Below, in pieces: positions 34,838 to 58,258 of a DNA stretch of 64,000 nucleotides. Numbering within the stretch: position 1 is the stretch's first letter; each line of letters begins with the position of its first letter. The position numbers were made by a program, and so were the translations under genes. The DNA is from a phage, in the sequence record PZ496580.1, one strand, 5' to 3'. The notes beneath the pieces were generated by a model. It saw only the letters and a program-made list of their open reading frames with translations. It was not told the DNA's origin and did no database searches.

Positions 34838-34866
34838 ATTATAGGGGATCACCGATCCCCTGTCAA
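34838..34866 (-). promoter_or_regulatory. Early promoter cassette (PeSL-type): TTGACA-N17-TATAAT with palindromic spacer
   Basis: Minus strand reads TTGACAGGGGATCGGTGATCCCCTATAAT; spacer is a perfect inverted repeat. Confidence 0.7.
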
Positions 34867-34874
34867 CAACTTTT

Positions 34875-35393
34875 TTAGTTATTTTTTAATTGCTCATCTT
34901 GCAATAGGGCAATCACATGCTGGCGATGTTCTTCCGATTGAGGCACACCGAAAAAGTTTGTTTTGTAGAAATACTCTAATCGGTCTTCTCGTGTGCTCTC
35001 TTCCATCATGATCGCTGGTAGACCAAGATTGCGGAAACGTCGCTTTTCTGCTGGCGTAAAATCGCTGTAATACAGCATAGAATCATCATTACCAGCAATG
35101 CTAAACTCATCCTTCATGAAGGAGAATATTGCGTTTAAACGCTGTTTACCGTCCACGATTTCGATCTCATAGCGAGAGCCATCATCAATCTTAGCCATTG
35201 CGATAGCGCCTACCGGAAAATCATTAATCAGGTTTTCGATAAACATACGTTTGTTTTCTGTGTCCCATACCAAAGGACGCTGATAATCTGGGTTCATGTT
35301 GATATAGCCATCTTCTAACCATGCTTCGTAAACAGAGATGACAAAGTTTTTAGTATTGGTATAGTAACGGCGTTTAGGCGTTAAACGGTTCAT
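34875..35393 (-). CDS. DUF262 / ParB-like nuclease-domain protein
   Basis: DYQRPLVW...FPVGAI...IVDGKQRL matches the DUF262 (GmrSD N-terminal) signature. Confidence 0.6.
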   Translation of the reverse strand: MNRLTPKRRYYTNTKNFVISVYEAWLEDGYINMNPDYQRPLVWDTENKRMFIENLINDFPVGAIAMAKIDDGSRYEIEIVDGKQRLNAIFSFMKDEFSIAGNDDSMLYYSDFTPAEKRRFRNLGLPAIMMEESTREDRLEYFYKTNFFGVPQSEEHRQHVIALLQDEQLKNN

Positions 35394-35569
35394 AATGTGC
35401 TTACCTTTTCAATATATGCGTCCGCATACTGGCGAATGCTCATTTCTTCTCGTACTGCTGCTACAAATTCTTTCATGGATTCAAACCATTTGTAGGTGTC
35501 GCGATACATGACCAACTCTTCCCAAGTAAGATCGCAAATCTCTTTACCGTGTAGTTGTGGTGTTATCAT
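35390..35569 (-). CDS. Small ORF (59 aa), translationally coupled
   Basis: ATGA overlap with the downstream DUF262 gene; below track length cutoff. Confidence 0.3.
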   Translation of the reverse strand: MITPQLHGKEICDLTWEELVMYRDTYKWFESMKEFVAAVREEMSIRQYADAYIEKVSTL

Positions 35570-35901
35570 AATATAGTTCTCCTGAATGGATCATCACGTA
35601 AATCAATATCTTTTAAGAACTCATCCCATGAATGGCGGATATTGTTCTTAATTCTCCAGATAAGCGCAGGGATTGAACGCTCACCCATCTGGAAGTAAGG
35701 ATCATATGATCCGTATGCCCAATATGCTACTACAATTCCACAATCAGCGCAATAGTATTCTATCTCGCTTGCTGGCGACCAAAGTCCATCAATATGATCG
35801 GTGATCTTGCTTTCAATGTTATGACTATGGCAATTAGGGCAACGTATGCAATGACCTTGTTTATCGTAATTTGACGTTAGAGAATACTTAAACAATCTCA
35901 T
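35566..35901 (-). CDS. Zinc-ribbon protein (111 aa)
   Basis: CIRCPNCH ... CADCG four-Cys arrangement; TAATG coupling to the upstream MTase-like gene. Confidence 0.5.
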   Translation of the reverse strand: MRLFKYSLTSNYDKQGHCIRCPNCHSHNIESKITDHIDGLWSPASEIEYYCADCGIVVAYWAYGSYDPYFQMGERSIPALIWRIKNNIRHSWDEFLKDIDLRDDPFRRTIL

Positions 35902-36617
35902 TATAGATCCTTATTGGCTTCAAATACTGCCTTTGCGAATCCTCGCGGGGTAAGTGACCTGATAGTCTTTGTTCTGGTTCCTTTCCCGCCTAGCTTAGAA
36001 TGCTGTTTGCTGTACCCTTTATTAATCGGCAACGGTTTCTTTTCTGGCATTATAAAGCCTTGTCCGGTCCACAAGCAAGTCTTTTTCGGGTACATATCAC
36101 GGGAGGCAATATACTCAGGAAACGTAGGATGTATATCATCTTCCGGCAAATAACCGCCATATTCCCACGGATGGAACATGTAATCAGGCTTACGCCACAT
36201 GCTAGAGATAACGCTTACAGGATTCTCTATCATGTAGGGAACTCCTAGCCATTCACCCAAATAAGCGGTTATTTTAGCTGCCCTTACATCATGAATTTGA
36301 ATTAATGGTCCTTGCTCTCGTTTCTTTCGTTCAAAGTGTGCAGCGCCACTAACAGCTAAATTGGTGCATGGTGGGAATGCAAATATAATATCCGGTTTCC
36401 CCCATTCAAGGTCCATTGCTCTTTCCAGCCAGTTCAAATCAATCCATGTGTTTACATAGGTAATGTTTGGATGTTCAAATCGGGTATTATATTTTTTGTA
36501 TGTACCGTGGTCGCCATCGTCAGCATTAAAGCAGATCACCTTATGACCTGCTTTAGCCCATTCTAGCCCCATTATCCCCGATCCGTCAAAGTTGCAGAAT
36601 ATTAATTTTTGTTTCAT
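35901..36617 (-). CDS. Minimal C5-cytosine methyltransferase-like protein (238 aa)
   Basis: Motif I-like FDGSGIMG, motif IV DIIFAFPPC, motif VI ENP, motif IX-like RSLTPRG; no room for a target-recognition domain. Confidence 0.55.
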   Translation of the reverse strand: MKQKLIFCNFDGSGIMGLEWAKAGHKVICFNADDGDHGTYKKYNTRFEHPNITYVNTWIDLNWLERAMDLEWGKPDIIFAFPPCTNLAVSGAAHFERKKREQGPLIQIHDVRAAKITAYLGEWLGVPYMIENPVSVISSMWRKPDYMFHPWEYGGYLPEDDIHPTFPEYIASRDMYPKKTCLWTGQGFIMPEKKPLPINKGYSKQHSKLGGKGTRTKTIRSLTPRGFAKAVFEANKDL

Positions 36618-36859
36618 ATACGCCCCTTTAACCCAACACAGATTTTAGAAGGTTCTTTACCGTGCCACATTAAGTAAAGTCCGTTAGTGCGGCCTTGTTT
36701 TGTATATGATTCTTTTCTAATCTTCTTATAGTGTCGTGCTTCCTCAACCGATTGTTTAGAATACCAATCATAAAGGAAGATGAACAAAGGCCAACCATTA
36801 GCGGCCTTAATGCAGTTATTAAGAAATTCCTTATTGCGTTTAATTAATTTTCTTTTCAC
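36614..36859 (-). CDS. Hypothetical basic protein (81 aa)
   Basis: Probable GTG start overlapping upstream stop; hydrophobic core segment. Confidence 0.35.
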   Translation of the reverse strand: MKRKLIKRNKEFLNNCIKAANGWPLFIFLYDWYSKQSVEEARHYKKIRKESYTKQGRTNGLYLMWHGKEPSKICVGLKGRI

Positions 36860-37107
36860 GCTGCCCCCGTTGGTTTGATAGTAACAGAATCTAAAAGACC
36901 TTTGTTAGCCAGTTCGCGGCAAGTTTTCAGATCCGCAACTTCCCAGCCAGCCGCAATCAGGTTATCAATCAGGCTGTTAGCAACTTCTTCGCTCATGAAA
37001 GAGCACTGTTTGCCGATGGTGTAGCGTACACGCTGTAATTTCAGTTTACGGAAGCCTTTAACGTTCAGGTCTTTAGCGATTTTCTTTGCGGTTTCGATGT
37101 TAGCCAT
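36856..37107 (-). CDS. Hypothetical protein (83 aa, MANIE start)
   Basis: First gene behind promoter cassette 37148-37176. Confidence 0.5.
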   Translation of the reverse strand: MANIETAKKIAKDLNVKGFRKLKLQRVRYTIGKQCSFMSEEVANSLIDNLIAAGWEVADLKTCRELANKGLLDSVTIKPTGAA

Positions 37108-37147
37108 TGTTTGATTCTCCTAAGTAGTATCTCGTCTTGATGTGTGT

Positions 37148-37176
37148 ATTATAGGGGATGGTGTCTCCCCTGTCAA
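37148..37176 (-). promoter_or_regulatory. Early promoter cassette (PeSL-type)
   Basis: TTGACA-GGGGAGACACCATCCCC-TATAAT on minus strand. Confidence 0.7.
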
Positions 37177-37190
37177 CACTTTTTATAAAA

Positions 37191-37358
37191 TTATTTGTTA
37201 ATTTCCGGTGCGTTGCTCGGATAGTAACCTTCTTTAACTCCGAGGTATTTCGCAACCATCCCTACAATCTTCTGTGCTACTACAATGTCAAATTTCAGAT
37301 AATCTTCGCCGTGGGTTTCAATGATATATGCTTCACATGCTGCTTTAGTCTCGAACAT
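37191..37358 (-). CDS. Small protein (55 aa), paralog of 40945-41112
   Basis: MFETKAACEAYIIETHGEDYLKFDIVVAQKIVGMVAKYLGVKEGYYPSNAPEINK; about 85 percent identical to the copy at 40945-41112. Confidence 0.45.
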   Translation of the reverse strand: MFETKAACEAYIIETHGEDYLKFDIVVAQKIVGMVAKYLGVKEGYYPSNAPEINK

Positions 37359-37391
37359 TTTGATTCTCCTATTTCGTTTCGGTATGTGTGT

Positions 37392-37421
37392 ATTATAGGG
37401 GATCTCCCGATCCCCGTCAAC
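37392..37421 (-). promoter_or_regulatory. Early promoter cassette (PeSL-type)
   Basis: GTTGAC-GGGGATCGGGAGATCCCC-TATAAT. Confidence 0.65.
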
Positions 37422-37434
37422 AACTTTTTTAAAA

Positions 37435-37716
37435 TTATTCGTGATTAGTTTCGATATTGTACATTTTGCACCAGTTCAGCCAATCGCCCAGATCTTGATA
37501 GTTGATGCTTTTATCTGCTGCCATAGTTTTTGTCTTGATACCCATATGTGCGTTATGAGTAAGCATTTTTACAGTGAACTCGATTTTATCGCCTTTAGCT
37601 TTAACATCAACCAGTTTGGTCCACTGGCTACCAGCGCCGCGAATGTTCATACCAACGATGTTTCCGATGTATGCTTCTTTGTTTTTCAGGATTTCGGTTG
37701 CTTTGATGAATTTCAT
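37435..37716 (-). CDS. Hypothetical protein (93 aa)
   Basis: ORF behind promoter cassette 37750-37778. Confidence 0.5.
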   Translation of the reverse strand: MKFIKATEILKNKEAYIGNIVGMNIRGAGSQWTKLVDVKAKGDKIEFTVKMLTHNAHMGIKTKTMAADKSINYQDLGDWLNWCKMYNIETNHE

Positions 37717-37749
37717 TTTTGATTCTCCAGTTCGTTTCGGTATGTGTGT

Positions 37750-37778
37750 ATTATGCTATGTTCTTACTTTGGTGTCAA
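37750..37778 (-). promoter_or_regulatory. Early promoter cassette (variant, -10 CATAAT)
   Basis: TTGACA-N17-CATAAT plus conserved UTR ACCGAAACGAACTGGAGAATCAAAA. Confidence 0.6.
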
Positions 37779-37786
37779 CAACTTTT

Positions 37787-38056
37787 TTAGATATTTTCAG
37801 AAATAAATTTTAAAACTTGACGTAAATGTTTCTCATCTTTGATAGTCGCCGGAAGTTCTTCTTTTACTTCCTGTGCAAGATAGATATTTCCGTTCCAAGT
37901 GAAAGATCCGTCTTCGTTTACGCGATAGCTGAACATCCACTCGCAATCATTTTCGATTTCATATACACACAGAAGGGTGTAATCATTAAAGCTGTTGATT
38001 TCAAGGTCGAGGCCGTGACGTTTTGCAAAGTTGGTAGTGGTTTTAGTCAATGCCAT
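37787..38056 (-). CDS. Hypothetical protein (89 aa)
   Basis: ORF behind promoter cassette 38097-38125. Confidence 0.5.
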   Translation of the reverse strand: MALTKTTTNFAKRHGLDLEINSFNDYTLLCVYEIENDCEWMFSYRVNEDGSFTWNGNIYLAQEVKEELPATIKDEKHLRQVLKFISENI

Positions 38057-38096
38057 TGTTTGATTCTCCTAAGTGGTATCTCGTTTCGATAGGTGT

Positions 38097-38125
38097 ATTA
38101 TGATATAGGCGTGATCTGGTGTCAA
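38097..38125 (-). promoter_or_regulatory. Early promoter cassette (variant)
   Basis: TTGACA-N17-CATAAT. Confidence 0.6.
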
Positions 38126-38145
38126 CAACTTTTTTAAAATTTAGG

Positions 38146-38172
38146 CAATAAAAAGCCGACACTAAGGTCGGC
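38146..38172 (-). terminator. Terminator GCCGACCTTAGTGTCGGC plus TTTTTATT
   Basis: Hairpin plus T-run; duplicated at 38653-38679. Confidence 0.6.
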
Positions 38173-38177
38173 ACATT

Positions 38178-38432
38178 TTAAAAATTCTTGCTATATATGC
38201 AAGCCTCATAATCTAGAGGATGACCGCCAATCCTACCAGGCTTAATATTCCAACCGCATCGATATTTGCTGACCATGCTAACCGTTTCGGTTCTTAGAGC
38301 ATTTCTTTGCAAATCATACCCCCTAAATTCTTGTCTATAAGGACAGTCCGCTTTGCAAGTTGGCGGTTCTACGTCATTTAGCGGGTCAGAAGCAGTTGGC
38401 TTTATTATCAATTCTTTGTTTGCAATAATCAT
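38178..38432 (-). CDS. Hypothetical protein (about 84 aa), overlapping the preceding ORF
   Basis: Start placed at internal ATG (MIIANKEL); overlaps the 3' end of ORF 38386-38565 in another frame; start uncertain. Confidence 0.3.
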   Translation of the reverse strand: MIIANKELIIKPTASDPLNDVEPPTCKADCPYRQEFRGYDLQRNALRTETVSMVSKYRCGWNIKPGRIGGHPLDYEACIYSKNF

Positions 38433-38565
38433 AAGCACATCCCATTGAAGGCAATTTAACATCTTCGCAATAAGTGTTGAATCCGTCAAATACAATCACT
38501 TCGTATTTGACTCCATCGGCGATAGCTTTTACTTTATACCATCCATGCTTGTATAAAATCTTCAT
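38386..38565 (-). CDS. Hypothetical Cys-containing protein (59 aa)
   Basis: ATG at 38565 after promoter cassette 38599-38627. Confidence 0.4.
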   Translation of the reverse strand: MKILYKHGWYKVKAIADGVKYEVIVFDGFNTYCEDVKLPSMGCAYDYCKQRIDNKANCF

Positions 38566-38598
38566 CTTTATTTCCCTCAATCTCGTTTCGATGGGTGT

Positions 38599-38627
38599 AT
38601 TATGCTATAGGCGTGATCTGGTGTCAA
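38599..38627 (-). promoter_or_regulatory. Early promoter cassette (variant)
   Basis: TTGACA-N17-CATAAT. Confidence 0.6.
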
Positions 38628-38652
38628 TGCCTTTTTTTTTAAAAATTTTATG

Positions 38653-38679
38653 CAATAAAAAGCCGACACTAAGGTCGGC
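38653..38679 (-). terminator. Terminator GCCGACCTTAGTGTCGGC plus T-run
   Basis: Copy of 38146-38172. Confidence 0.6.
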
Positions 38680-38687
38680 TAATAAAA

Positions 38688-38997
38688 TCATTTAGACAAA
38701 TAATCATTCTGTGCAATCCGGTCGGCGTATGCTGGTGTTATGTCAATCGCCAGCACTTTAACGCGTGCTTTCTTGCGACCTGAGTTTTCTCGTAACCAGT
38801 GCTCATGACCGTGAACATTTTTATACTTTGATGCTGTTTCGAAAGTACGGATCGGACCTGGGTAATCAGCGTAAAGGATCTCTAGGTCTTCGGTGATGTA
38901 AAAATATACATCATAATTACTGTTCTCTAGTTTAAGCAGAGAGTTGCGTAATTGTGGTAAATTCTCGCGGGTAAATTCAACTACAAGATTTTTCATA
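38688..38997 (-). CDS. Small protein, HxHW family member A (102 aa)
   Basis: C-terminal GHEHW...VKVLAIDI signature shared with four or five other ORFs; start at MKNLVV. Confidence 0.5.
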
Positions 38998-39019
38998 GTG
39001 ATATCCTCATTCAGATAGA

Positions 39020-39040
39020 TTAAAAGGGGCTTAACGCCCC
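39020..39040 (-). terminator. Terminator GGGGCGTTAAGCCCC plus T-run
   Basis: Same hairpin as 34562-34587. Confidence 0.5.
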
Positions 39041-39045
39041 ATATA

Positions 39046-39333
39046 TTAAAACAGTCCTTCCTGTACACCGTAGTAGAGTTCATCGCTGATAATTTCATTA
39101 ATGCGACGGTGTGCATATTCCTGATTTGCGAAGTTGTCAGCAAGTTCTACTTTAGTTTCGCCGTCATGAGTCCATTTAGTGATAACTTTACCATCTGCAA
39201 ATTTGAAGTTGAACTCTTTAGCTACTGCATCGCGTACCAGACGTGCAAACTTGTTGTTACGGATTGCATTATCGGTCTCGTGTGCAGCGTGAGCAAATTT
39301 GTTAACTTTCAGCGTGATAGTGATGTATGCCAT
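39046..39333 (-). CDS. Hypothetical protein (95 aa)
   Basis: ORF behind promoter cassette 39374-39402. Confidence 0.5.
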   Translation of the reverse strand: MAYITITLKVNKFAHAAHETDNAIRNNKFARLVRDAVAKEFNFKFADGKVITKWTHDGETKVELADNFANQEYAHRRINEIISDELYYGVQEGLF

Positions 39334-39373
39334 TGTTTGATTCTCCTAAGTGGTATCTCGTTTCGATGGGTGT

Positions 39374-39402
39374 ATTATGCTATACACCCGATCTTATGTC
39401 AA
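39374..39402 (-). promoter_or_regulatory. Early promoter cassette (variant)
   Basis: TTGACA-N17-CATAAT. Confidence 0.6.
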
Positions 39403-39407
39403 CACTT

Positions 39408-39686
39408 TTATAAAATAATTTTTTGATATTTTTCTATGATGTTTGAGTAGGTCACATCAACCGCTAGCACCGTTGCTTCGAATCCACCGTCTAGCCAATG
39501 GCTATGGTCATGATCGTGAAAGAAACCAAGACCAGTACGAAGACCTTCTTTATATTCGGCGCGTACATTCAGTTTGTCGTCGATAAACAGATAAAACCAT
39601 GAATTTTTACTAGGATTGATGATACAACCTTTCAGATTAGGGAGAATATCACGACTAAGAATAAACTTATCACCTACTTTGAACAT
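39408..39686 (-). CDS. Small protein, HxHW family member B (92 aa)
   Basis: FYLFIDDK ... HDHDHSHW ... TVLAVDV; SD GAGGA. Confidence 0.5.
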   Translation of the reverse strand: MFKVGDKFILSRDILPNLKGCIINPSKNSWFYLFIDDKLNVRAEYKEGLRTGLGFFHDHDHSHWLDGGFEATVLAVDVTYSNIIEKYQKIIL

Positions 39687-40211: not shown

Positions 40212-40213
40212 AA

Positions 40214-40700: not shown

Positions 40701-40880
40701 TTAGAAAGGGATGGTCATTTCTTGAGCTTGTACATTCTCATTAGGATTAAACTTCATCCAGCCGATATTGTCTACCAGCATATGCACATTTTTATCATAT
40801 CCTACGTGGGTAGTCAATACTGTATGTGCTTTACCTTCAATTATGAGTTCCATGTACTTCTGAACTTCGATAGCTTTCAT
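40701..40880 (-). CDS. Small ORF (59 aa)
   Basis: MKAIEVQKYMELIIEGKAH...; ATG after promoter cassette 40913-40941; below track cutoff. Confidence 0.35.
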   Translation of the reverse strand: MKAIEVQKYMELIIEGKAHTVLTTHVGYDKNVHMLVDNIGWMKFNPNENVQAQEMTIPF

Positions 40881-40912
40881 TTTGATTCTCCGTTTGTTGT
40901 CTTGATGGGAGT

Positions 40913-40941
40913 ATCTTACTACTCCCTTTAATCATTGTCAA
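40913..40941 (-). promoter_or_regulatory. Early promoter cassette (variant, stem-loop overlapping -10 TAAGAT)
   Basis: TTGACA-N17-TAAGAT with GGGAGTAGTAAGATACTCCC palindrome. Confidence 0.5.
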
Positions 40942-40944
40942 CTA

Positions 40945-41112
40945 TTATTTGTTAATTTCTGGTGCGTTGCTCGGATAGTAACCTTCTTTAACACCCAGAT
41001 ATTTTGCAACCATTCCGGTGATCTTCTGTGCTACTACGATATCGAATTTCAGGTAGTCTTCACCGTGGTTTGCTACAATGTATGCTTCGCATTCTGCTTT
41101 AGTCTGGAACAT
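40945..41112 (-). CDS. Small protein (55 aa), paralog of 37191-37358
   Basis: MFQTKAECEAYIVANHGEDYLKFDIVVAQKITGMVAKYLGVKEGYYPSNAPEINK. Confidence 0.45.
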   Translation of the reverse strand: MFQTKAECEAYIVANHGEDYLKFDIVVAQKITGMVAKYLGVKEGYYPSNAPEINK

Positions 41113-41147
41113 TTTTTGATTCTCCTATATCTCGTTGGTATGTGTGC

Positions 41148-41176
41148 ATTATAGGGGATCACCGATCCCCTGTCAA
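41148..41176 (-). promoter_or_regulatory. Early promoter cassette (PeSL-type)
   Basis: Core is a reverse-complement copy of 34838-34866 (spacer GGGGATCGGTGATCCCC). Confidence 0.7.
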
Positions 41177-41181
41177 CAACT

Positions 41182-41475
41182 TTATAATGCTTTATATGCG
41201 TATTTCATAAATTTGTCTGCCACTTCATTGGCATGTTCAGCTTCTACGCCTGATTCGAGAACAATAGCTAGGTCGGTTTCGTCATTCCCGCCGTACCAAT
41301 GATTTGATGTTCGATTTTTTTCAATTGGAAATTGGTCACTTTTATCTGTGCGACAAAATACATCTAAATGCTCGTCGATGTAAAAGATCCAATCTTCATA
41401 AAGAATAACGGTATTAGCCAGATTTTTATTGCCTTCAACGAAAGGTTCGGCTACAAACAAATTAGTATGTTCCAT
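41182..41475 (-). CDS. Small protein, divergent HxHW-family member F (97 aa)
   Basis: ILYEDWIFYIDEHLD ... NHWYGG ... LAIVLE; start at MEHTNL with SD GAGGAA. Confidence 0.4.
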   Translation of the reverse strand: MEHTNLFVAEPFVEGNKNLANTVILYEDWIFYIDEHLDVFCRTDKSDQFPIEKNRTSNHWYGGNDETDLAIVLESGVEAEHANEVADKFMKYAYKAL

Positions 41476-42081: not shown

Positions 42082-42261
42082 TTACATTACGATCACGCCA
42101 GCCGTTGAAAGTTGATGTTTCAACTGAGCATTTTCTGCTACCGTCAAATCAATGATTTCTTGTGACGCTGCAATCATATAGCCATTGGTGATATTGTTTT
42201 GCATCAGTTCAATGGTTTCTTCGTTGTAGCGGATTTTAGCGATGATTTCGTTGAAGTTCAT
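42082..42261 (-). CDS. Hypothetical protein (59 aa)
   Basis: ATG behind promoter cassette 42296-42324. Confidence 0.4.
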   Translation of the reverse strand: MNFNEIIAKIRYNEETIELMQNNITNGYMIAASQEIIDLTVAENAQLKHQLSTAGVIVM

Positions 42262-42295
42262 AATTGATTCTCCTAGTTCGTTTCGGTATGTGTGT

Positions 42296-42324
42296 AGTAT
42301 AGGGGATCGGTGATCCCCTGTCAA
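42296..42324 (-). promoter_or_regulatory. Early promoter cassette (PeSL-type)
   Basis: TTGACA-GGGGATCACCGATCCCC-TATACT. Confidence 0.65.
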
Positions 42325-42337
42325 CAACTTTTTTGAA

Positions 42338-42814
42338 TTATTTTTCTTGATGCTCGCGCTCGTACTTTTCGAAATAAAATTCTACTGGCTGGTCGTGGAT
42401 TGAAAGCAAGCCAAAGCGTTTAGCCGCTCGTAATCCCATATTGCGCTGAATGTACTTCTGGAAGTTCTCGCGTATACACTTACGCCAGTATTCTAAGCCC
42501 ATACAGCTTTTATAAAGATTGCATTGCACACATGCCGGATTCATGTTATCAAGTATATCATGCTCCGGTTTATGCATTCCTACAACCTTATACTTCCACG
42601 ATCCATCATCGTTACGGGAAATGCGCCCATTTTCATCATAGACTACTTTTGAGCGTCGTAATACTGGTTTGATATGATCCGCGTGCCAGCGTTCTCCTAG
42701 TACCTCTCCGCAATAGGCACAACGTCCACCGTATTTCATTTTCAGGATCTGGCGTTGCTCTTTCTTTGACAATTTTTTAGGTTTAGGGGCTTTCGCCCCT
42801 TCATTATCACACAT
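42338..42814 (-). CDS. HNH endonuclease
   Basis: CAYCG...HADHIKP...NMNPACVQCN HNH motif; overlaps the ligase 3' end by 8 nt. Confidence 0.7.
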   Translation of the reverse strand: MCDNEGAKAPKPKKLSKKEQRQILKMKYGGRCAYCGEVLGERWHADHIKPVLRRSKVVYDENGRISRNDDGSWKYKVVGMHKPEHDILDNMNPACVQCNLYKSCMGLEYWRKCIRENFQKYIQRNMGLRAAKRFGLLSIHDQPVEFYFEKYEREHQEK

Positions 42815-45330: not shown

Positions 45331-45371
45331 AATTTTATTACCTCTTCAAATCAATACAGTTTAATGATGAA

Positions 45372-49721: not shown

Positions 49722-50120
49722 TTAACTTTCCAGAATATCTCGAGCTTCGTTACGCTCCTTGATGATTTTCAGGACAAATTCCAGTTTTTCTTTGTTCAGT
49801 GTTCCGTTTTCCATTGCTTCTTTGACGGTAAACACTCCGCCACCTTGCCCGTATACAGTGACAGTGATTTCACCTAACATCGTGGTATGAAAACCGCCAA
49901 TTTTCGGTGATTCGAAAGAAACAATTACCTCGCGGACAGTATTACCGTCGTTGATTTCTGAGAGGGTAATGTCGTTTTTGTAGGCGGTTGCTTTAACCAT
50001 ACGGATCAGCATAGTCTGATCTGGGGAGATGGTCATTTTGTCCATTGCATGTTGCAATGCAGCGTAACCGAAAACTTTAACGAAGTCCAGAACGTCTTTG
50101 CGAGTTTGAAATTTAATCAT
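49722..50120 (-). CDS. Hypothetical protein (132 aa)
   Basis: ORF behind promoter cassette 50162-50190. Confidence 0.5.
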   Translation of the reverse strand: MIKFQTRKDVLDFVKVFGYAALQHAMDKMTISPDQTMLIRMVKATAYKNDITLSEINDGNTVREVIVSFESPKIGGFHTTMLGEITVTVYGQGGGVFTVKEAMENGTLNKEKLEFVLKIIKERNEARDILES

Positions 50121-50161
50121 CTTGATACTCCTTAGTAAGTGTGTTTCGTTTCGATGGGGGT

Positions 50162-50190
50162 ATATTACTACCCCCGTTTCATGCTGTCAA
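50162..50190 (-). promoter_or_regulatory. Early promoter cassette (variant, -10 TAATAT)
   Basis: TTGACA-N17-TAATAT with GGGGGTAGTAATATACCCCC palindrome. Confidence 0.55.
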
Positions 50191-50409
50191 CTACTTTTTA
50201 ATGACAAGTTCGAATTTTGCTACCTTACGTCCTCGTTTATTGAAAGCAACCCACGGACGGTTTTCAATGTAGAACAATTCTTCACCAATAATGAATACTG
50301 GCTGATTGTAAAGGCGACCCATCAGGTCACGCTGGCGAATGGTAGTAGATTCGTATACTTCGCCTACTACAAAGTGTTTGCTGATAGAGTCGGTGCAGAT
50401 AAATTTCAT
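50191..50409 (-). CDS. Hypothetical protein (72 aa)
   Basis: ORF behind promoter cassette 50443-50471. Confidence 0.45.
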   Translation of the reverse strand: MKFICTDSISKHFVVGEVYESTTIRQRDLMGRLYNQPVFIIGEELFYIENRPWVAFNKRGRKVAKFELVIKK

Positions 50410-50442
50410 TTTGATTCTCCTTTGTTTCGTTTCGATGGGAGT

Positions 50443-50471
50443 ATCTTACTACCCCCGTTATTCAGTGTCAA
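50443..50471 (-). promoter_or_regulatory. Early promoter cassette (variant, -10 TAAGAT)
   Basis: TTGACA-N17-TAAGAT with palindrome across the -10. Confidence 0.5.
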
Positions 50472-50478
50472 CTACTTT

Positions 50479-50697
50479 TTACTTGTTGTATTCATTCCAC
50501 CATTGGGTTAACTTATCAATTATTTTTGTGTTTCTATCCAACTTATCCCACCGTTTTCGAGGGTTTATCAACCGGAATAGGTAAGGTGTACTTGTTAAGT
50601 GAACTCGGTCAATATAGTGATTGATGTACTGCTTTTCGATTCTAAGTTTCATCTTTTTACGATGAAAATATGCAATGACTTGTTCTTCTGTTTCCAT
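50479..50697 (-). CDS. Hypothetical basic protein (72 aa)
   Basis: ORF behind promoter cassette 50722-50750. Confidence 0.45.
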   Translation of the reverse strand: METEEQVIAYFHRKKMKLRIEKQYINHYIDRVHLTSTPYLFRLINPRKRWDKLDRNTKIIDKLTQWWNEYNK

Positions 50698-50721
50698 ATG
50701 TTCCTCCGTTTCGATGTGCGT

Positions 50722-50750
50722 ATTATGCTATGGCAAGATCCGATTGTCAA
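50722..50750 (-). promoter_or_regulatory. Early promoter cassette (variant, -10 CATAAT)
   Basis: TTGACA-N17-CATAAT. Confidence 0.55.
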
Positions 50751-50761
50751 CACCCAATAAC

Positions 50762-50786
50762 AAAAAAGTCGCCACTATGGGCGACT
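50762..50786 (-). terminator. Terminator after the HAD-like gene
   Basis: Hairpin GTCGCCCATAGTGGCGAC followed by TTTTTTG. Confidence 0.55.
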
Positions 50787-50797
50787 TTGAACAAACA

Positions 50798-51274
50798 TTA
50801 ATCATGACCGTGATTTGCAATATCCGCTCGCGTCTTATCTTTGTGATTTCCTACGTCAAAGACACGATAACCATTTTCACGCAAAACTTTAATCACTTCT
50901 GGGTTATCCTCAAAGACTCCCACCACTTCATCTTTATCAAAGGATTTAATTACCTCTAATTTGATGTGATAGTCTTTACGAGAATCGGTACGGCCTCTCA
51001 TAAAGATTTTATCAAAACACACCCCGTTAGAAATTAACCAATCAATTGTTTCCATGTAAGCATGTGAACTTCGTCCGGTGAGGATGTAAATCAAATGCCC
51101 GTTGTCGGAAAGAGCATTAATAACACGAATTACATCGTAAATGGGGGAATCTCCCCCACATGCCTTGTTATATTCGATCCATGACTCGACTTTATCAAGA
51201 TTTTCGGTTGGCATCTTTGCTAGTCGATGTGTTGGATCTGTGATCGTAAAATCTAAATCGACAAAATATATCAT
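50798..51274 (-). CDS. HAD-superfamily phosphatase-like protein
   Basis: DLDFT (DxDxT motif I), ILTGR (motif II), FEDNP (motif IV); ATGA coupling to nrdB. Confidence 0.55.
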   Translation of the reverse strand: MIYFVDLDFTITDPTHRLAKMPTENLDKVESWIEYNKACGGDSPIYDVIRVINALSDNGHLIYILTGRSSHAYMETIDWLISNGVCFDKIFMRGRTDSRKDYHIKLEVIKSFDKDEVVGVFEDNPEVIKVLRENGYRVFDVGNHKDKTRADIANHGHD

Positions 51275-52787: not shown

Positions 52788-52954
52788 TATCCGACAACCT
52801 CAAAACATTTATCATCAGGAAGAATAGCCCATTCTACGCCGTATTCATCCTCAACGTAGTAGCAAGTCCCATCATGTCGAGCATCATATACATCACCGAC
52901 AACAAAGCTATCAGCTAGTTCAAAATCTACAGCAACACATTTTAATTTGGTCAT
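52787..52954 (-). CDS. Hypothetical protein (55 aa)
   Basis: MTKLKCVAVDF...; SD GAGGAT; first gene behind promoter cassette 52986-53015. Confidence 0.4.
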   Translation of the reverse strand: MTKLKCVAVDFELADSFVVGDVYDARHDGTCYYVEDEYGVEWAILPDDKCFEVVG

Positions 52955-52985
52955 AATAAAATCCTCACTTGTTTTTGATGGTTGA

Positions 52986-53015
52986 ATTATAGCGGGGATT
53001 TCTCCCCGCGTCAAC
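52986..53015 (-). promoter_or_regulatory. Early promoter cassette between nrdA and nrdB
   Basis: GTTGAC-GCGGGGAGAAATCCCCGC-TATAAT. Confidence 0.6.
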
Positions 53016-53022
53016 ACTTATT

Positions 53023-55266
53023 TTACAGTTTACAAGATGAACATTCACTAGAGTCTTCCGTACCATCAGCACCATCACGCACGTTAGCGTAATACAGTGT
53101 CTTGAGGCCGTAATATTGAGCAAACAACATATCATCTAATACATCAGCAATATCGACTTTACCAGTCTTATAAGTGCTTGGATCATAGGATGTGTTGGAA
53201 CTAATCGCCTGATCTACAAACTTCTGCATGATCGCTGCCAGTGTCAGATAAGGCTTGTTACCTTTCTTGATCAGTGTCCAAAGCAGGTCAATAACATCAG
53301 CATTATTCTCTACGTTCGGAATAACCTGATTAAATTGCCCTTCTTTCGATCCTTTAACCGATACAATCCCGCGAGGCGGTTCAATACCGTTTGTGCTGTT
53401 AGATACCTGAGAAGACGACTCACAAGGCATCAGAGCCGAAAGCGTACTGTTACGAATGCCATATTTTTTCAGGTCTTCGCGCAGTTCCTCCCAATCCATC
53501 TCATACACCGGATCAACCAGTTCATCTACTGTCTTTTTGTACCAGTCGATAGGAAGTTCACCGCGACCATAACGTGTTTCGTGCATCAGTTCGCAAGCAC
53601 CCTTCTCTTTAGCCAGTTGCACACTAGCCTTAATCAGAGCATATTGCAAGCGTTCAAACGTTTTATGCGTAAACTCGTTAGCGTCTTCATATGTGAAGAA
53701 ATTATCCGCGAGATACGATGCAAAGTTAGTCACACCAACACCCAGAGATCGACGTTTTTTGGCTGTCAGAGCTTGTTCTACAGGATAATCCTGGTAATCT
53801 AACAAGTTGTCAAGTGCACGCACCATAACCATAGCAATGCGTTCTACTTCTTCCATATTTTCGATATCGAAATTACCTAAAACATATGCTGCCAAAGTAC
53901 ATAGGCTGATCTCTGAATCATCACGACCCATCGGTTTAGTAGGCAGTGCAATTTCACAACACAGGTTAGATTGTTTAATCGGTGCTACATTACGAATAAA
54001 CGCCCCGTGATTGTTCATGTTGTCTGTGAACGCTGGATAGATTCGACCAGTGTTAAAACGTTCAATTGCCACCGCTAAAAACAGGTCTTCGGCTTTAACA
54101 CGAGTTTTACGAACACTCGGATCTTTTTCCAGTTTTTCGTAAAGCTGGCGGAAACCTTCCTCATCTCGGAAGTACAGATCCCACAACAAGCCACCTGCAA
54201 CATCTGGACTAAACAGAGTAATGTAATCCCGTTTAAGGAATCGCTCTACCATCAGGTTATTAATCTGTACGCCGTAATCAAGATGGCGAATGCGGTTATC
54301 TTCTACCCCTTTGTTGTTCTTCAACACAATAAGACTTTCAAACTCTAAATGCCACATTGGGTAATAGAGAGTCGCCGCCCCGCCACGAATACCGCCTTGT
54401 GAGCATGACTTAACGGCAGTCTGAAAATGTTTCCAGAATGGGATAACGCCAGTATGACGAACTTCACCATGCCCGATCTTAGATCCTTCCGCGCGAATCA
54501 TGCCAGCGTTGATACCGATGCCAGCACGCTTACTAATATACTTGATGATTGCATTTGCTGTTTCGTTGATGCCCTGCAATGAGTCATCAGATTCGATCAC
54601 CACACACGAACTAAATTGGCGTGTTGGAGTACGCACACCAGCCATAATCGGAGTAGGAAGAGAAATTTGCTTATTAGCAACAGCATTATAAAAATCAATC
54701 ACATGTTCAAGTCGATTTTCTGTCTCTTCTTGATGTAAACACATACCGATCAGCATATACGCAAATTGCGGTGTTTCGATGATTTTCTTAGTGCTGCGAT
54801 CCTGAACAAGATATTTCTCTTTTAATTGCATCGCACCAGCATAGGTCATTTTAAAATCAAGTTTATGATCGATGAATTTCTCCAGATATTCCACTTCTTC
54901 ACGGGAATACTTTTGCAGAATTTCACGATCATATTTTCCGGTTGCAATATTACGCTCAATGTGGCTATAAAAATCAATAGGTTGGAATTGACCGTATACT
55001 GATTTACGAAGCGCGAACATTGCAAGGTTACTTGCTACATATTGATAATCTGGTGTTTCTACAGTAATGTTATCTGCTGCGACCTTAATCAATACTTTCT
55101 GGATATCATTGGTAGACATACCTTCTGTCAGAAGTGGTTCAACCATATCAAACAATTCATATGGATCAACGTTATGACCTTCGGCTGCCGCTTCCAGAAT
55201 TTTCATTACTTTTTCTTTTTCAAACGGAACAGTCAGACCGGAAGACTTAACAACATTTTTAATCAT
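53023..55266 (-). CDS. nrdA: Ribonucleotide reductase alpha subunit (NrdA)
   Basis: 747 aa; C-terminal CSSCKL; class Ia R1 similarity. Confidence 0.95.
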   Translation of the reverse strand: MIKNVVKSSGLTVPFEKEKVMKILEAAAEGHNVDPYELFDMVEPLLTEGMSTNDIQKVLIKVAADNITVETPDYQYVASNLAMFALRKSVYGQFQPIDFYSHIERNIATGKYDREILQKYSREEVEYLEKFIDHKLDFKMTYAGAMQLKEKYLVQDRSTKKIIETPQFAYMLIGMCLHQEETENRLEHVIDFYNAVANKQISLPTPIMAGVRTPTRQFSSCVVIESDDSLQGINETANAIIKYISKRAGIGINAGMIRAEGSKIGHGEVRHTGVIPFWKHFQTAVKSCSQGGIRGGAATLYYPMWHLEFESLIVLKNNKGVEDNRIRHLDYGVQINNLMVERFLKRDYITLFSPDVAGGLLWDLYFRDEEGFRQLYEKLEKDPSVRKTRVKAEDLFLAVAIERFNTGRIYPAFTDNMNNHGAFIRNVAPIKQSNLCCEIALPTKPMGRDDSEISLCTLAAYVLGNFDIENMEEVERIAMVMVRALDNLLDYQDYPVEQALTAKKRRSLGVGVTNFASYLADNFFTYEDANEFTHKTFERLQYALIKASVQLAKEKGACELMHETRYGRGELPIDWYKKTVDELVDPVYEMDWEELREDLKKYGIRNSTLSALMPCESSSQVSNSTNGIEPPRGIVSVKGSKEGQFNQVIPNVENNADVIDLLWTLIKKGNKPYLTLAAIMQKFVDQAISSNTSYDPSTYKTGKVDIADVLDDMLFAQYYGLKTLYYANVRDGADGTEDSSECSSCKL

Positions 55267-55334
55267 ATTACCTCACTTCATATTTTAGCAGGAACAAGTT
55301 TATCCTCCATAACGGGGGCTTTCGCCCCCTTTGT

Positions 55335-56567
55335 TTATACTGCCATTTGAGCGGTGATTGCTGGATGGCTTTGATAGTTGTGAATTTTAAAGTCTTTCGG
55401 AGTCTTTGTCAATACCTCATCTAAAGATTTAAATTCCGGCAACTCGATTGTTGGTTTATCAAACGGAACACGGCTTAACTGTTCCATAACTTGATCAAAA
55501 TGGTTTTTGTAAATGTGAGTATCTCCACCAGAGAAAATCAGTTCTCCTACCTCAAGATCACACATTTTCGCTATGATGTGAGTTAACAGCGCATAGCTGG
55601 CAACATTAAAGGGCAAGCCCAAAAAGCTGTCTACGCTTCGCTGAAACCACATACAAGACAGTTTACCTTCATTGACATAGAATTGTACGAACGGATGACA
55701 TACACCCAATACAGCATTATGTGTTCCTTGTACGTTCCATGAGTCAATGATGATACGTCGATCCGTTGGATTGTTTTTAATTTGTTCAATCACGTTTTGT
55801 AACTGGTCTTCCCAAATCTTCGGGCGATAGACATATTCTTCATCGTCTTTAGTGCTCGATGTGTCTACGTCCATACTAGCAAAGATCGTGGTATCTGGCG
55901 CTAAAATATCCCCGCCCAGATAATCACTATCAAGCAGATAACCGAAATAACCATCATCTACCCATTCCTGGAATCCCCACAAGCAATATGCATCATTAAC
56001 AAAATTAGATTGAGTCTTCCAGTGGTCTGCTACTAAGAATAGATTATATTCAGAATCAAACTCTTCATAACGCATACCACGCCAGATAGCACATAAACGG
56101 TCTTCTGTTTCATTGGTTGGCGTAAAGTCTTCTACCCACGGGTGCTTAAATGTATGTGTATATTTGCTCTTAACGCGCTTAATTTTGATTTCACCGTGTG
56201 GATGAATCGGTTTGCGTCGCCACGCCATACCATACATATTGCCGACATTATAACCATTGAATCGCAAAGGATTCTTTTCTTTCATATCAAGACAGTTGCC
56301 GCGCCAAATGTCGAAGGCTTCTTCGTCAAACTGACCGCGTGTAATTTCCTGTAAGCGACGGCGGTCAAGTGATCCCTCCATAAACCATAGCAACTCGCCA
56401 ATTACAGAGGCTGTAGCCATCTTTTTAGTGGTCAGTAATGGGAAACCCTTGTTTAAATCGATTCGCATCTCTGCGCCGAATTTAGAGAGCGTACCTACCC
56501 CCGTGCGGTCTTCACGAGGCCAGCCATTATCAAGAACATCACGCAACAGTTTCAAATATTCTTTCAT
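55335..56567 (-). CDS. td: Thymidylate synthase with large small-domain insertion
   Basis: Catalytic VLGVCHPFVQFYV, dUMP-specific FLGLPFNVASY, C-terminal PAITAQMAV; about 135 extra residues between YGMAWRR and DQLQNVIEQ; ORF continuous. Confidence 0.85.
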   Translation of the reverse strand: MKEYLKLLRDVLDNGWPREDRTGVGTLSKFGAEMRIDLNKGFPLLTTKKMATASVIGELLWFMEGSLDRRRLQEITRGQFDEEAFDIWRGNCLDMKEKNPLRFNGYNVGNMYGMAWRRKPIHPHGEIKIKRVKSKYTHTFKHPWVEDFTPTNETEDRLCAIWRGMRYEEFDSEYNLFLVADHWKTQSNFVNDAYCLWGFQEWVDDGYFGYLLDSDYLGGDILAPDTTIFASMDVDTSSTKDDEEYVYRPKIWEDQLQNVIEQIKNNPTDRRIIIDSWNVQGTHNAVLGVCHPFVQFYVNEGKLSCMWFQRSVDSFLGLPFNVASYALLTHIIAKMCDLEVGELIFSGGDTHIYKNHFDQVMEQLSRVPFDKPTIELPEFKSLDEVLTKTPKDFKIHNYQSHPAITAQMAV

Positions 56568-56808: not shown

Positions 56809-56901
56809 TATTGTTCCCGTCCACAATGTAAACACCGACTACCAGCAAACATCAAAGATTCACCACAATGTTTGCACTCATAATCTGTCAGAATTTTCAT
56901 G

Positions 56902-57471
56902 TTACGCCTTCTTACGTTCCAAAATTTGCTCACTGATCAGGTAATCATCAAGGAAGTAATTATGTTCTTCTTTTGTTGCAAAGTCAAAATATAATTCCTG
57001 AATCATTTCCTTAGAGATACCAACATCATATTCGAACGGATCGTTGATTCCTGAACGTTGAACATACGTTAACACAATACGGTCCGCAAAGTCAACCGCT
57101 TTTTCAATCAGGGAAGGTCCGCCGATAACACTTACCAAACCTTGCGTTTTCTCTAGGGCTTTTAACAGATCCTTCAATTCAATTCCAGTGTACACATCTG
57201 GTTGGTCGCCGTTTTTTGTTTTCGGTTCTGGCTTGCTGGTATCGGTACTAACAACCACATTCAAACGTCCCCAAAGTGCTTTAGGCAGACTTTCAAAGGT
57301 ATTACGTCCCATTACTACCGCAGCAAAATCAACCTCGCCAATAGTGCGAATTTTAAAGTTTTCCATATCCTTTTTGATTGGACGACCCCACGGTAAACCG
57401 CCTTTAAAACCAAACGCCCAATTTTCATCTGACATTTTAGTGTCACCAATCGCAAATACACATTGAATCAT
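56902..57471 (-). CDS. frd: Dihydrofolate reductase
   Basis: FGFKGGLPWGRP ... VIGGPSL motifs; similarity to T4 Frd. Confidence 0.85.
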   Translation of the reverse strand: MIQCVFAIGDTKMSDENWAFGFKGGLPWGRPIKKDMENFKIRTIGEVDFAAVVMGRNTFESLPKALWGRLNVVVSTDTSKPEPKTKNGDQPDVYTGIELKDLLKALEKTQGLVSVIGGPSLIEKAVDFADRIVLTYVQRSGINDPFEYDVGISKEMIQELYFDFATKEEHNYFLDDYLISEQILERKKA

Positions 57472-57485
57472 AATATAATCTCCTA

Positions 57486-57815
57486 TTAAATCAGTTTAAA
57501 GAAGTTTTCGTTTACATTTTCTTCGGTGATTGCTGTCTTAAATTCTTGACCGTTATCCGGTGTGATGAAATAACGGTCAGAATAATCACGAAAACGTTTT
57601 AAGTGAGATACTCCAACATTAACACCATTTTCCCAGAAACGAAAGGTAATCATTTTTGGTTCATATCGATAGTCGCTGGTTAACACAGTACCATCACCGC
57701 GACGGGCTTCATAAACCGTAATACACTCACGATTAGCGGCTTTAAGGCATTCTTCAATAGTGCCGCACGAGATAATACTTACTGTTTCATCTACGATTTG
57801 TTCTACTGTCCACAT
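57486..57815 (-). CDS. Hypothetical protein (109 aa)
   Basis: ORF behind promoter cassette 57847-57874. Confidence 0.45.
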   Translation of the reverse strand: MWTVEQIVDETVSIISCGTIEECLKAANRECITVYEARRGDGTVLTSDYRYEPKMITFRFWENGVNVGVSHLKRFRDYSDRYFITPDNGQEFKTAITEENVNENFFKLI

Positions 57816-57846
57816 AATATAATCCTCTCTTTGTTTCGATGTTTGT

Positions 57847-57874
57847 ATTATACATCATCTGTATTCGGTGTCAA
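57847..57874 (-). promoter_or_regulatory. Early promoter cassette (variant)
   Basis: TTGACA-N16-TATAAT. Confidence 0.5.
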
Positions 57875-58200
57875 CCTTTTTGTTCCATGAAAAGCGGTGC
57901 TGTTTCTTCTTTCAGTTTGATAACTAGCGCGGAAACTTCATCAAGAAAATCTTTTTCCATATGAGCAAGCATTGATTTAGAATCTTTGATGACTTTCAAA
58001 GAATATTCACTTAGATTTCCTTTTCCTAACAATAATGCGGGATACACACTATGTGGGATCTCGATTTCGTGATATTCGCTCATAGTATAATATTTGTGAA
58101 TTTTTAAATCTATATTTCTTCGTTGTACGTCTACATCAGCAATGACATACAGAAGTTCGATTTTATCACTTTTCTGGGAAAGGGTAGCATTCAAAAACAT
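57871..58200 (-). CDS. Hypothetical protein (109 aa)
   Basis: ORF behind promoter cassette 58230-58258. Confidence 0.45.
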   Translation of the reverse strand: MFLNATLSQKSDKIELLYVIADVDVQRRNIDLKIHKYYTMSEYHEIEIPHSVYPALLLGKGNLSEYSLKVIKDSKSMLAHMEKDFLDEVSALVIKLKEETAPLFMEQKG

Positions 58201-58229
58201 TGTTAATCCTCCGTTGTTTCGATGCTTGT

Positions 58230-58258
58230 ATTATACAACCTCATCTCAGCATGTCAAT
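58230..58258 (-). promoter_or_regulatory. Early promoter cassette (variant)
   Basis: TTGACA-N17-TATAAT. Confidence 0.55.

Follow-up and report, generated by a model that had tools for sequence, protein, structure and literature searches.

Why should one promoter-like sequence recur sixteen times, always on the same strand, among the small accessory genes of a T4-type phage? In the stretch analysed here (sequence record PZ496580.1; 64,000 nucleotides, all of it referred to below as the window) such a sequence is found at 34838, 37148, 37392, 37750, 38097, 38599, 39374, 40913, 41148, 42296, 50162, 50443, 50722, 52986, 57847 and 58230. The window was identified as Krischvirus (RB49-like, Straboviridae, T4-type coliphage), since a 10-kb query was 95-96% identical to phages Brandy, JK32 and RB49 and to about 60 further Krischvirus genomes, with Phi1 at about 95% too, and the gene order of the window is colinear with open reading frames (ORFs) 182-240 of RB49. 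It had been proposed, from the letters alone, that the repeats are promoter-early stem-loop (PeSL) elements of the kind described in RB49-type phages, and this proposal held: the genome is a Krischvirus, the repeats have the sequence features of PeSLs, and they are positional orthologues of published RB49 and Phi1 elements. We therefore consider it highly probable that the sixteen repeats are the PeSL cassettes of an RB49-like coliphage, in which an early promoter, a hairpin, a leader and a recombination site are combined. The cassettes are real, and they are ordinary for the RB49-like phage group.

A homologous family of early promoters

A near-consensus sigma70 promoter is present on the minus strand at all sixteen positions. 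The spacer is 17 nt long in fourteen cassettes and 16 nt in two (57847 and 58230), where the original prediction had placed a hexamer one position off. The exact pattern TTGACA-N17-YATAAT occurs at 9 sites against 0.03 expected from shuffles, and the listed sites that are not exact differ by one or two bases (TTGACG, TATACT, TAAGAT, TAATAT), so that the promoter score is at least 10/12 in all sixteen cassettes and at least 11/12 in thirteen. A motif scan, which had been suggested as a check, was run over the window and returned 28 matches of at least 11/12, compared with 2.8 ± 1.8 in dinucleotide shuffles, and 27 of the 28 lie on the minus strand. It could be argued that an A/T-rich genome (the window has 59% A+T) will yield promoter matches by chance or composition, and loose scans (at least 9/12) did give counts near those of the shuffles (49 sites against 41.9; 69 against 50.5). 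Nevertheless, the exact-pattern count, the count at 11/12 or better and the E-values of a cassette profile (1e-12 to 4e-21) refute a chance origin, and the sites are kept at orthologous positions in seven other genomes; the probability that we assign to chance is negligible.

The profile in question was built with nhmmer from about 110 nt around the sixteen sites. When run on the window it recovered exactly these sixteen, each over about 90-105 model positions, while the next match had an E-value of 0.13; the list of sixteen is therefore complete for the homologous family. Likeness between the copies is unevenly distributed. Pairwise identity is 65-67% in the flanks (an A-rich tract resembling an UP element plus the -35 hexamer on one side, the -10 hexamer plus leader on the other) and 33% in the spacers, and it continues past the hexamers through the sequence next to the -10 and the leader as far as the first codons. 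The -35 region reads (G)TTGAC(A/G) with G at -33 in every cassette, as distinct from the GTTTAC with T at -33 of early promoters in T4 proper. The cassettes would work like T4 early promoters but are of the E. coli consensus type. A scan of the whole window against Rfam at the gathering threshold matched no family, and an exact-pattern scan of IMG/VR for promoters with the GGGGATC-N3-GATCCCC palindrome returned only 2 contigs (about 150-165 kb), presumably RB49-like, giving no sign of spread beyond the RB49-like group at exact-pattern stringency.

The surroundings of the promoter are just as regular. The 25 nt on the 5' side of the -35 hexamer have a mean A+T content of 76%, and in 12/16 cassettes the preceding gene ends with its stop codon 0-14 nt before the -35 hexamer (in one case overlapping it by 4 nt); in the four cassettes that have a terminator upstream, this stop codon is 47-62 nt from the -35. 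On the other side, a Shine-Dalgarno (SD) sequence and an ATG follow 24-41 nt past the -10 hexamer in all sixteen cassettes and open an ORF of 55-132 aa. A conserved 5' untranslated region with ATG had been predicted, and the SD and ATG are indeed universal, but the leader strings quoted at the time occur exactly only in subsets of the copies (ACCGAAACGA in 4/16, CGAAAC in 12/16, GGAG[A/T]ATCAA in 11/16 and AAGGAGAATCAAA in 1/16). Two genes, behind cassettes 1 and 2, had also been noticed to begin MANIE from identical codons; they do have 16 nt in common at the start (ATGGCTAACATCGAAA), but the likeness goes no further, as blastp gave no match between them otherwise. Homologues of the ORFs behind the cassettes carry the annotation 'hypothetical' in relatives such as RB49 and Phi1, and Pfam gave no match for the three downstream ORFs tested (57871-58200, 57486-57815 and 49722-50120). 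GGAG lies within the SD in 13 of the leaders. In T4 this tetranucleotide is the cleavage motif of RegB, and the regB gene of RB49 is functional, though divergent. By analogy with T4, RegB cleavage at the GGAG of the SD may help to inactivate the early mRNAs made from the cassettes.

Counterparts in RB49 and Phi1

In 2010, Arbiol, Comeau, Kutateladze, Adamia and Krisch (PMC2839356) defined the PeSL in phages RB49 and Phi1 as a sigma70-consensus promoter with an A/T-rich upstream region and a stem-loop, frequently polyG...polyC, for which five positions were described, among them the space between the boxes, an overlap with one box and the A/T-rich upstream region. At its 3' side the element ends in the SD and start codon belonging to an ORFan. 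Their count was 51-52 PeSLs per genome, mostly in hyperplastic regions and tied to the indels that distinguish RB49 from Phi1. Every one of these sequence-level features was found in the window: the promoter, the A/T-rich tract with its stop codon, the stem-loop, the SD and start, the hyperplastic location and the association with indels. The cassettes fall in three stretches, the first being a block of hypothetical genes between alt and the DNA ligase gene (gene 30), the second running from denA to nrdB and including a site after nrdA, and the third lying between frd and gene 32. PeSLs of RB49 and Phi1 occupy the same regions (alt to gene 30, denA to nrdB, nrdA, frd to gene 32) in positional orthology, and two of the ORFs affected by the indels described below (ORF192 and ORF210) were also discussed by Arbiol et al. 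(PMC2839356). As positional orthologues of published PeSLs, the cassettes of this phage belong to a class that is already known. What differs from RB49 and Phi1 is only the gene content between cassettes, together with individual hairpin variants: the window is without homologues of ORF186, ORF192, ORF210/211 and ORF226, and it has a 109-aa ORF where RB49 has the ORF240 endonuclease, as well as an extra 59-aa ORF at 35390-35569.

A second line of published evidence comes from the promoter list of Nolan, Petrov, Bertrand, Krisch and Karam (2006; PMC1524935, Additional file 3). The cassette profile found 18 copies in the corresponding stretch of RB49, and all 18 are on that list of early promoters (Pe), where the matching sites run from Pe:114800 to Pe:139424. 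Nolan et al. (PMC1524935) described the RB49 Pe as having G at -33, C or T at -12 and an A-rich tract at -40 to -44, and stated that the consensus agrees with 5'-end mapping of early transcripts. Their work differs in that it lists promoters only, with neither 'stem-loop' nor 'palindrom' in the text and no recombination role. No relevant transcription-start or RNA-seq data for Krischvirus came up when the literature was searched.

Activity was measured by Arbiol et al. on close relatives of two of the cassettes. The cassette at 41148 is identical in 89/90 positions to PeSL206/205 of RB49, whose lacZ fusion gave about 13,000 Miller units (PMC2839356). The hairpin of PeSL211/210 (GGGGATCACGTATCCCC), a spacer-type hairpin closely resembling the one at 42296, cut lacZ expression about as much as rrnB T1 (PMC2839356). 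In addition, mini-circles were found experimentally in RB49 and Phi1 for ORF192 and ORF210 (PMC2839356).

Each unit is an intergenic cassette of about 75-125 bp made up of the preceding stop codon within an A-rich, UP-like tract, the promoter, the hairpin and a leader with a strong GGAG-type SD and ATG. Unmodified host RNA polymerase would read the near-consensus promoter immediately after infection, and the cassette would have three roles. First, it would start early transcription of the accessory gene behind it, presumably at every copy. Second, the hairpin, which would form only in transcripts arriving from upstream, would end or attenuate them, and each gene or small operon would therefore be a separate expression unit; presumably all of the hairpins within promoters would terminate in this way. 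Third, because their flanks are about 65% alike and all copies have the same orientation, the cassettes would behave as dispersed direct repeats, between which homologous recombination of the phage would delete, insert, duplicate or swap genes.

Some promoter matches of 11-12/12 lie outside the family. Those without extended cassette homology on the minus strand are 59325-59352, 16600-16627, 16035-16062, 46439-46468 and 55384-55412, together with five further ones at 60097-62271, several of which lie inside coding regions at 60-62 kb. The matches at 59352, 16627 and 46468 are intergenic and have an SD and ATG, and Pe:136961 and Pe:140927 of RB49 roughly correspond to the sites at 55412 and 59352. 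The sole plus-strand match (12/12, at 20612-20639) faces the inh gene and precedes uvsW by about 725 nt.

Gene-sized indels, chimeras and duplication

A comparison of gene content across related phages had been suggested as a further check. We chained blastn alignments of window positions 30-64 kb against RB49, Phi1, Brandy, JK32, ECD7, Skers and pEJ01 and found 12 distinct gene-sized differences, 7 of which have one or both junctions inside cassettes. The cassette at 34838 marks the loss of an ORF186 homologue. A module of the ORF191 type, missing in Brandy and JK32, extends from the cassette at 37148 (left junction) to that at 37392, and the 37392 cassette also marks the loss of RB49 ORF192. 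A block of about 400 bp between 38097 (left) and 38599 (right) is absent in Phi1, ECD7, Skers and pEJ01, with 97 nt of repeated homology. At 42296, ORF210 (ORF210-211 in RB49) was lost, with 75 nt of repeated homology in the comparison with Phi1, ECD7 and pEJ01, and at 50162 ORF226 was lost. Between 57847 (left) and 58230 (right), the 109-aa ORF replaces the ORF240 endonuclease of RB49, Phi1, JK32 and Skers. Overlapping homology of 42-97 nt was seen at 6/7 of the cassette junctions; at 37392 the overlap is only about 5 nt.

Three-way alignments resolved two of these junctions. The upstream half of the 34838 cassette is that of the RB49 cassette before ORF186 and its downstream half that of the cassette before ORF185, and the 50162 cassette is likewise composed of parts of the two RB49 cassettes that precede ORF226 and ORF225. 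The crossover falls within the shared leader in both, and such chimeric junction cassettes are what the published recombination model predicts. A cassette together with its ORF has also been duplicated: the modules at 37191-37358 and 40945-41112 (both on the minus strand) encode 55-aa ORFs that are 89% identical, and with cassettes 3 and 9 included the two copies are about 85% identical over about 240 nt. The first copy is the one missing in Brandy and JK32.

The same facts could be accommodated by supposing that the sites are ordinary early promoters and nothing else, their likeness being due to selection for sigma70, UP and SD sequences plus local duplication, and the indels being found there since viable ones are intergenic. 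About 6% of the region is cassette sequence, and a cassette sits at about 28% of the gene junctions. Enrichment of indels at cassettes is strong in a binomial test by base (p=1.9e-6) and when both ends are required to lie in cassettes (p=1.2e-5), but it is modest when gene junctions are taken as the null (p=0.027), and 5/12 indels used other sites; moreover, recombination of the T4 type requires no dedicated enzyme and makes do with less than 50 bp of homology (PMC2839356). Set against this are a homology that exceeds the functional hexamers and runs into leader and first codons, the junction overlaps of 42-97 nt, the entire cassette-plus-ORF module copied at a second locus, the mini-circles detected in RB49 and Phi1 (PMC2839356), and the fact that both aligned RB49-based deletion junctions (34838 and 50162) are clean chimeras with their crossover in the shared leader. 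We regard the ordinary-promoter alternative as unlikely. It differs from the PeSL explanation in degree only, as passive homologous recombination is part of both.

Three of the differences between phages concern segments with other boundaries. The 59-aa ORF at 35390-35569 (minus strand), absent from the seven relatives and without a Pfam match, lies within an operon with overlapping stop/start junctions and is not bounded by cassettes. ECD7 and pEJ01 have an extra segment of about 640-650 bp after gene 31, at about 45353-45381 (an HNH endonuclease gene in ECD7), and Skers and pEJ01 have one of about 640-650 bp between gene 32 and gene 59, at about 59293-59360 (an HNH homing-endonuclease gene), the insertion point of which overlaps the consensus promoter at 59325-59352.

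Stem-loops: RNA hairpins or protein-binding sites?

A hairpin is present in 14/16 cassettes and takes one of three forms. Six cassettes (34838, 37148, 37392, 41148, 42296 and 52986) have a G+C-rich hairpin that fills the spacer. In four (39374, 40913, 50162 and 50443) the hairpin spans the -10 hexamer, with its 5' arm in the spacer and its 3' arm formed by a conserved ACnCCC just past the -10. The remaining four (38097, 38599, 50722 and 58230) have a hairpin with a T-run upstream of the promoter. It had been expected that the spacer would be palindromic in most copies and that a hairpin terminator would often precede the promoter; the first expectation is borne out for the ten copies of the first two groups but not for the other six, and the second for four copies but not for the other twelve. 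The ten in-promoter hairpins have folding energies of -9.9 to -15.1 kcal/mol with z-scores of -2.3 to -5.1. The four upstream hairpins (38155-38172, 38661-38680, 50765-50788 and 58290-58309) have the form of a canonical intrinsic terminator, a G+C-rich hairpin followed by a U-tract, and TransTerm, as used by Nolan et al. (PMC1524935), predicted terminators at the matching gene junctions of RB49, among them the orthologue of the cassette 13 hairpin.

Among eight genomes the stems are highly variable in sequence, loop and register but stay complementary; one stem position, for example, is G-C in seven copies, A-U in four and G.U in two. Interior G.T pairs are found on the sense strand only (50443, plus variants in Phi1 and RB49), although these amount to just 3-4 cases. 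Each hairpin precedes the start site of its own cassette and is therefore able to act only on transcripts coming from upstream. When the sense and antisense strands of 33 hairpin-bearing cores were folded, no strand preference was seen, the antisense strand being slightly more stable only because the fixed ACA...TAT bases of the hexamers add G.U pairs.

These data bear on a different explanation, namely that the palindromes are duplex DNA sites for a dimeric protein, either a phage repressor that would switch off the early promoters from a seat between -35 and -10 or a site-specific recombination factor behind the exchange of cassettes, and not RNA hairpins. The spacer palindrome GGGGATC-N3-GATCCCC does sit at the classic operator position, the in-promoter hairpins are without a U-tract, the comparison of the two strands showed no preference, and Arbiol et al. 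themselves speculated on a specific DNA-binding protein or recombination factor for the GGGG...CCCC motif (PMC2839356). However, the stems differ in sequence, length, loop and position (GGGGATC, GGGGAG, GCGGGGA, GGGTGTAT, GGGAGTA, GGGGGTA) to an extent that one protein could hardly read, and the sense-strand G.T pairs keep a hairpin in RNA or single-stranded DNA but break a duplex palindrome. In four cassettes the palindrome is replaced by an upstream terminator, which suggests that termination is the common need. One spacer hairpin blocked lacZ in uninfected E. coli, where phage proteins are absent, and as for a site-specific recombination factor, the PeSL authors state that no recombinase or integrase is known in RB49 or Phi1 (PMC2839356). 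Stem variation together with sense-strand G.T pairs speaks more for a single strand that folds, read-through RNA being the simplest candidate, than for a protein that binds a specific duplex sequence, and we hold binding by a dimeric protein to be quite improbable. A single sequence-specific operator was rejected, given stem diversity with complementarity kept.

Several points weigh against the PeSL explanation as set out above. The activity of promoters and terminators in this phage is extrapolated from orthologues, and the terminator role of the in-promoter hairpins from one published reporter construct. Two cassettes (37750 and 57847) are without a convincing stem. Behind the ten in-promoter hairpins there is no U-tract, their tails being AUAAUGCACA, ATAATGCACA, TATAATACAC, AUCGAA (ATCGAA) and similar; they do not have the form of canonical intrinsic (rho-independent) terminators, and TransTerm in the hands of Nolan et al. 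(PMC1524935) called only the upstream T-run hairpins and no RB49 orthologue of the in-promoter ones. Canonical intrinsic termination thus does not explain how, or whether, most in-promoter hairpins terminate. Covariation amounts to a single pair, in the -10-overlapping hairpin, with a score that was reached by 7/500 shuffles, which lends some support without being decisive. To these must be added the modest enrichment of indels over gene junctions and the five indels off cassettes, two of them insertions of homing endonucleases in relatives and the other three small ORFs within operons.

The individual cassettes

All cassettes are on the minus strand and are numbered by coordinate. Cassette 1 (34799-34877) combines TTGACA-17-TATAAT and the spacer hairpin GGGGATC-GGT-GATCCCC with a leader of the form ACCGAAACGA...AAGGAGTATCAA and an ATG at 34801 (70 aa, MANIE). 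Cassette 2 (37105-37193) has the same hexamers and spacing, the spacer hairpin GGGGA-gacacca-TCCCC and an ATG at 37107 (83 aa, MANIE), while cassette 3 (37356-37437) has TTGACG-17-TATAAT, the spacer hairpin GGGGATC-GGGA-GATCCCC and an ATG at 37358 (55 aa). Cassette 4 (37714-37789; TTGACA-17-CATAAT; ATG 37716, 93 aa) forms no stem-loop (minimum free energy 0.0). The next two share TTGACA-17-CATAAT and a terminator hairpin: in cassette 5 (38054-38180; ATG 38056, 89 aa) this upstream terminator is GCCGACCTTAGTGTCGGC followed by TTTTT (38155-38172), and cassette 6 (38563-38690; ATG 38565, 59 aa) has the same hairpin at 38661-38680. Cassette 7 (39331-39410; TTGACA-17-CATAAT; ATG 39333, 95 aa) has an 8-bp hairpin, GGGTGTAT-agcata-ATACACCC, across the -10, with a folding energy of -13.8 kcal/mol (z=-4.4). 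Cassette 8 (40878-40947) is built on TTGACA-17-TAAGAT with the hairpin GGGAGTA-gtaaga-TACTCCC across the -10 and an ATG at 40880 (59 aa). Cassette 9 (41110-41184; TTGACA-17-TATAAT; ATG 41112, 55 aa) repeats the spacer hairpin of cassette 1, and cassette 10 (42259-42340; TTGACA-17-TATACT; ATG 42261, 59 aa) has the spacer hairpin GGGGATC-ACC-GATCCCC.

Cassettes 11 to 13 lie close together. The first of them (50118-50193; TTGACA-17-TAATAT; ATG 50120, 132 aa) has the hairpin GGGGGTA-gtaata-TACCCCC across the -10, the second (50407-50481; TTGACA-17-TAAGAT; ATG 50409, 72 aa) the hairpin GGGGGTA-gtaaga-TACTCCC with one G.T pair, and the third (50695-50800; TTGACA-17-CATAAT; ATG 50697, 72 aa) the upstream terminator AAAGTCGCC-catagt-GGCGACTTT followed by TTTG (50765-50788). 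Directly downstream of nrdA, cassette 14 (52952-53025; TTGACG-17-TATAAT; ATG 52954, 55 aa) carries the spacer hairpin GCGGGGA-gaaa-TCCCCGC, which folds with -15.1 kcal/mol (z=-5.1). Cassette 15 (57813-57904; TTGACA-16-TATAAT; ATG 57815, 109 aa) has a weak stem only, and cassette 16 (58198-58322; TTGACA-16-TATAAT; ATG 58200, 109 aa) has the terminator AGCCTCCC-ttcg-GGGAGGCT followed by TTTTT (58290-58309), downstream of gene 32.

Palindrome flips, GATC sites and neighbouring genes

The 17-nt spacer palindromes at 34838 (34844-34860) and 41148 (41154-41170) both read GGGGATCGGTGATCCCC, and that of the 42296 cassette (GGGGATCACCGATCCCC, 42302-42318) is their exact reverse complement. The same flip of the loop between ACC and GGT was found between orthologous cassettes of different phages, JK32 (L004, near 24675) and RB49 (L001, near 19090). 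Either a crossover between two copies within the stem or an inversion at the palindrome could produce such flips.

The tetranucleotide GATC occurs 3-5 nt past the -35 hexamer in 8/16 cassettes (34847-34857, 37401-37412, 38113-38116, 38615-38618, 39390-39393, 41157-41167, 42305-42315 and 50737-50740) and is doubled in each GGGGATC-N3-GATCCCC palindrome. The 462 bp of promoter core hold 12 GATC sites where 2.8 would be expected from the density in the window, in which GATC is not depleted (ratio 1.10 to the trinucleotide expectation). In eight Krischvirus genomes, GATC stands at the equivalent position in 28/57 distinct cassette cores, non-hairpin spacers included, although these are related copies that may owe it to shared ancestry. 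That the promoter spacer carries a functional Dam site is a long shot. If the methylation state, full on injected DNA and hemi- or unmethylated after rapid replication, tuned promoter strength or the formation of a hairpin or cruciform, the site would be a built-in early-to-late switch or a trigger of cassette recombination, and the exact flips between GGT and ACC might reflect events at the palindrome itself. The PeSL paper (PMC2839356) makes no mention of GATC or methylation, and as far as checked the loop flips, the fixed-position GATC and the hairpins without U-tract are likewise absent from it; we offer them as leads and not as results.

Nearby, the gene at 35901-36617 (minus strand) is a homologue of the 'DNA methyltransferase' gene of RB49 and Phi1. 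Its product, checked as a candidate Dam-type enzyme, had no Pfam match at E<=0.01, and therefore the GATC idea is not tied to a phage enzyme. Directly upstream of cassette 1, the gene at 34875-35393 (minus strand) encodes a 172-aa protein that corresponds to GmrSD-type restriction endonucleases in the N-terminal domain only (PF03235/DUF262, E=4e-20). Over the whole window GGCC is strongly depleted, with 28 sites observed and 72 expected from trinucleotide frequencies (0.39), and AGCT (0.62) and GCGC (0.70) are also low, a shortage that may reflect avoidance of restriction sites.

Related systems and implications

PeSLs have since been described by Comeau, Arbiol and Krisch (2014; PMC4122927) in T4/PST and in KVP40/nt-1, where they are likewise composites of promoter and terminator in hyperplastic locations with differential ORFs. 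Those elements have their own promoter consensus (TTTACW...TAYWAT or TTGYVH...TAWWAT) and their own stems (AGNA-loop-TCNT or A3-4G3-loop-C3T3-4), whereas the cassettes of the window are of the RB49 type. A likeness can also be drawn to morons (Hendrix et al. 2000) and to Botstein-Campbell linkers, as a moron is a single accessory gene with a promoter and terminator and linkers allow the exchange of modules. Morons, however, are not thought to be mobile by way of their regulatory sequences and are without conserved flanks, whereas here the regulatory cassette is the exchange repeat. The PeSL authors drew an analogy to integrons (PMC2839356), which also have small promoter-associated cassettes, circles and a conserved insertion site. 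In contrast to integron cassettes, PeSLs each have their own promoter and are apparently exchanged by general homologous recombination, with no integrase or attC-type site known (PMC2839356), although no systematic integrase scan of the window was made. The resemblance is one of analogy only, and the cassettes are not members of the integron family.

The value of the present analysis is confirmatory, in that it re-identifies a published class of elements in another genome of the RB49 type. The pattern known from the literature persists when seven more genomes are added: junctions fall in cassettes, chimeras are found and a module of cassette and gene has been duplicated. One point has been sharpened, namely that the hairpins within promoters mostly do not have the form of canonical terminators. 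In T4-type phages, PeSL cassettes explain how accessory genes are expressed and how they are shuffled.

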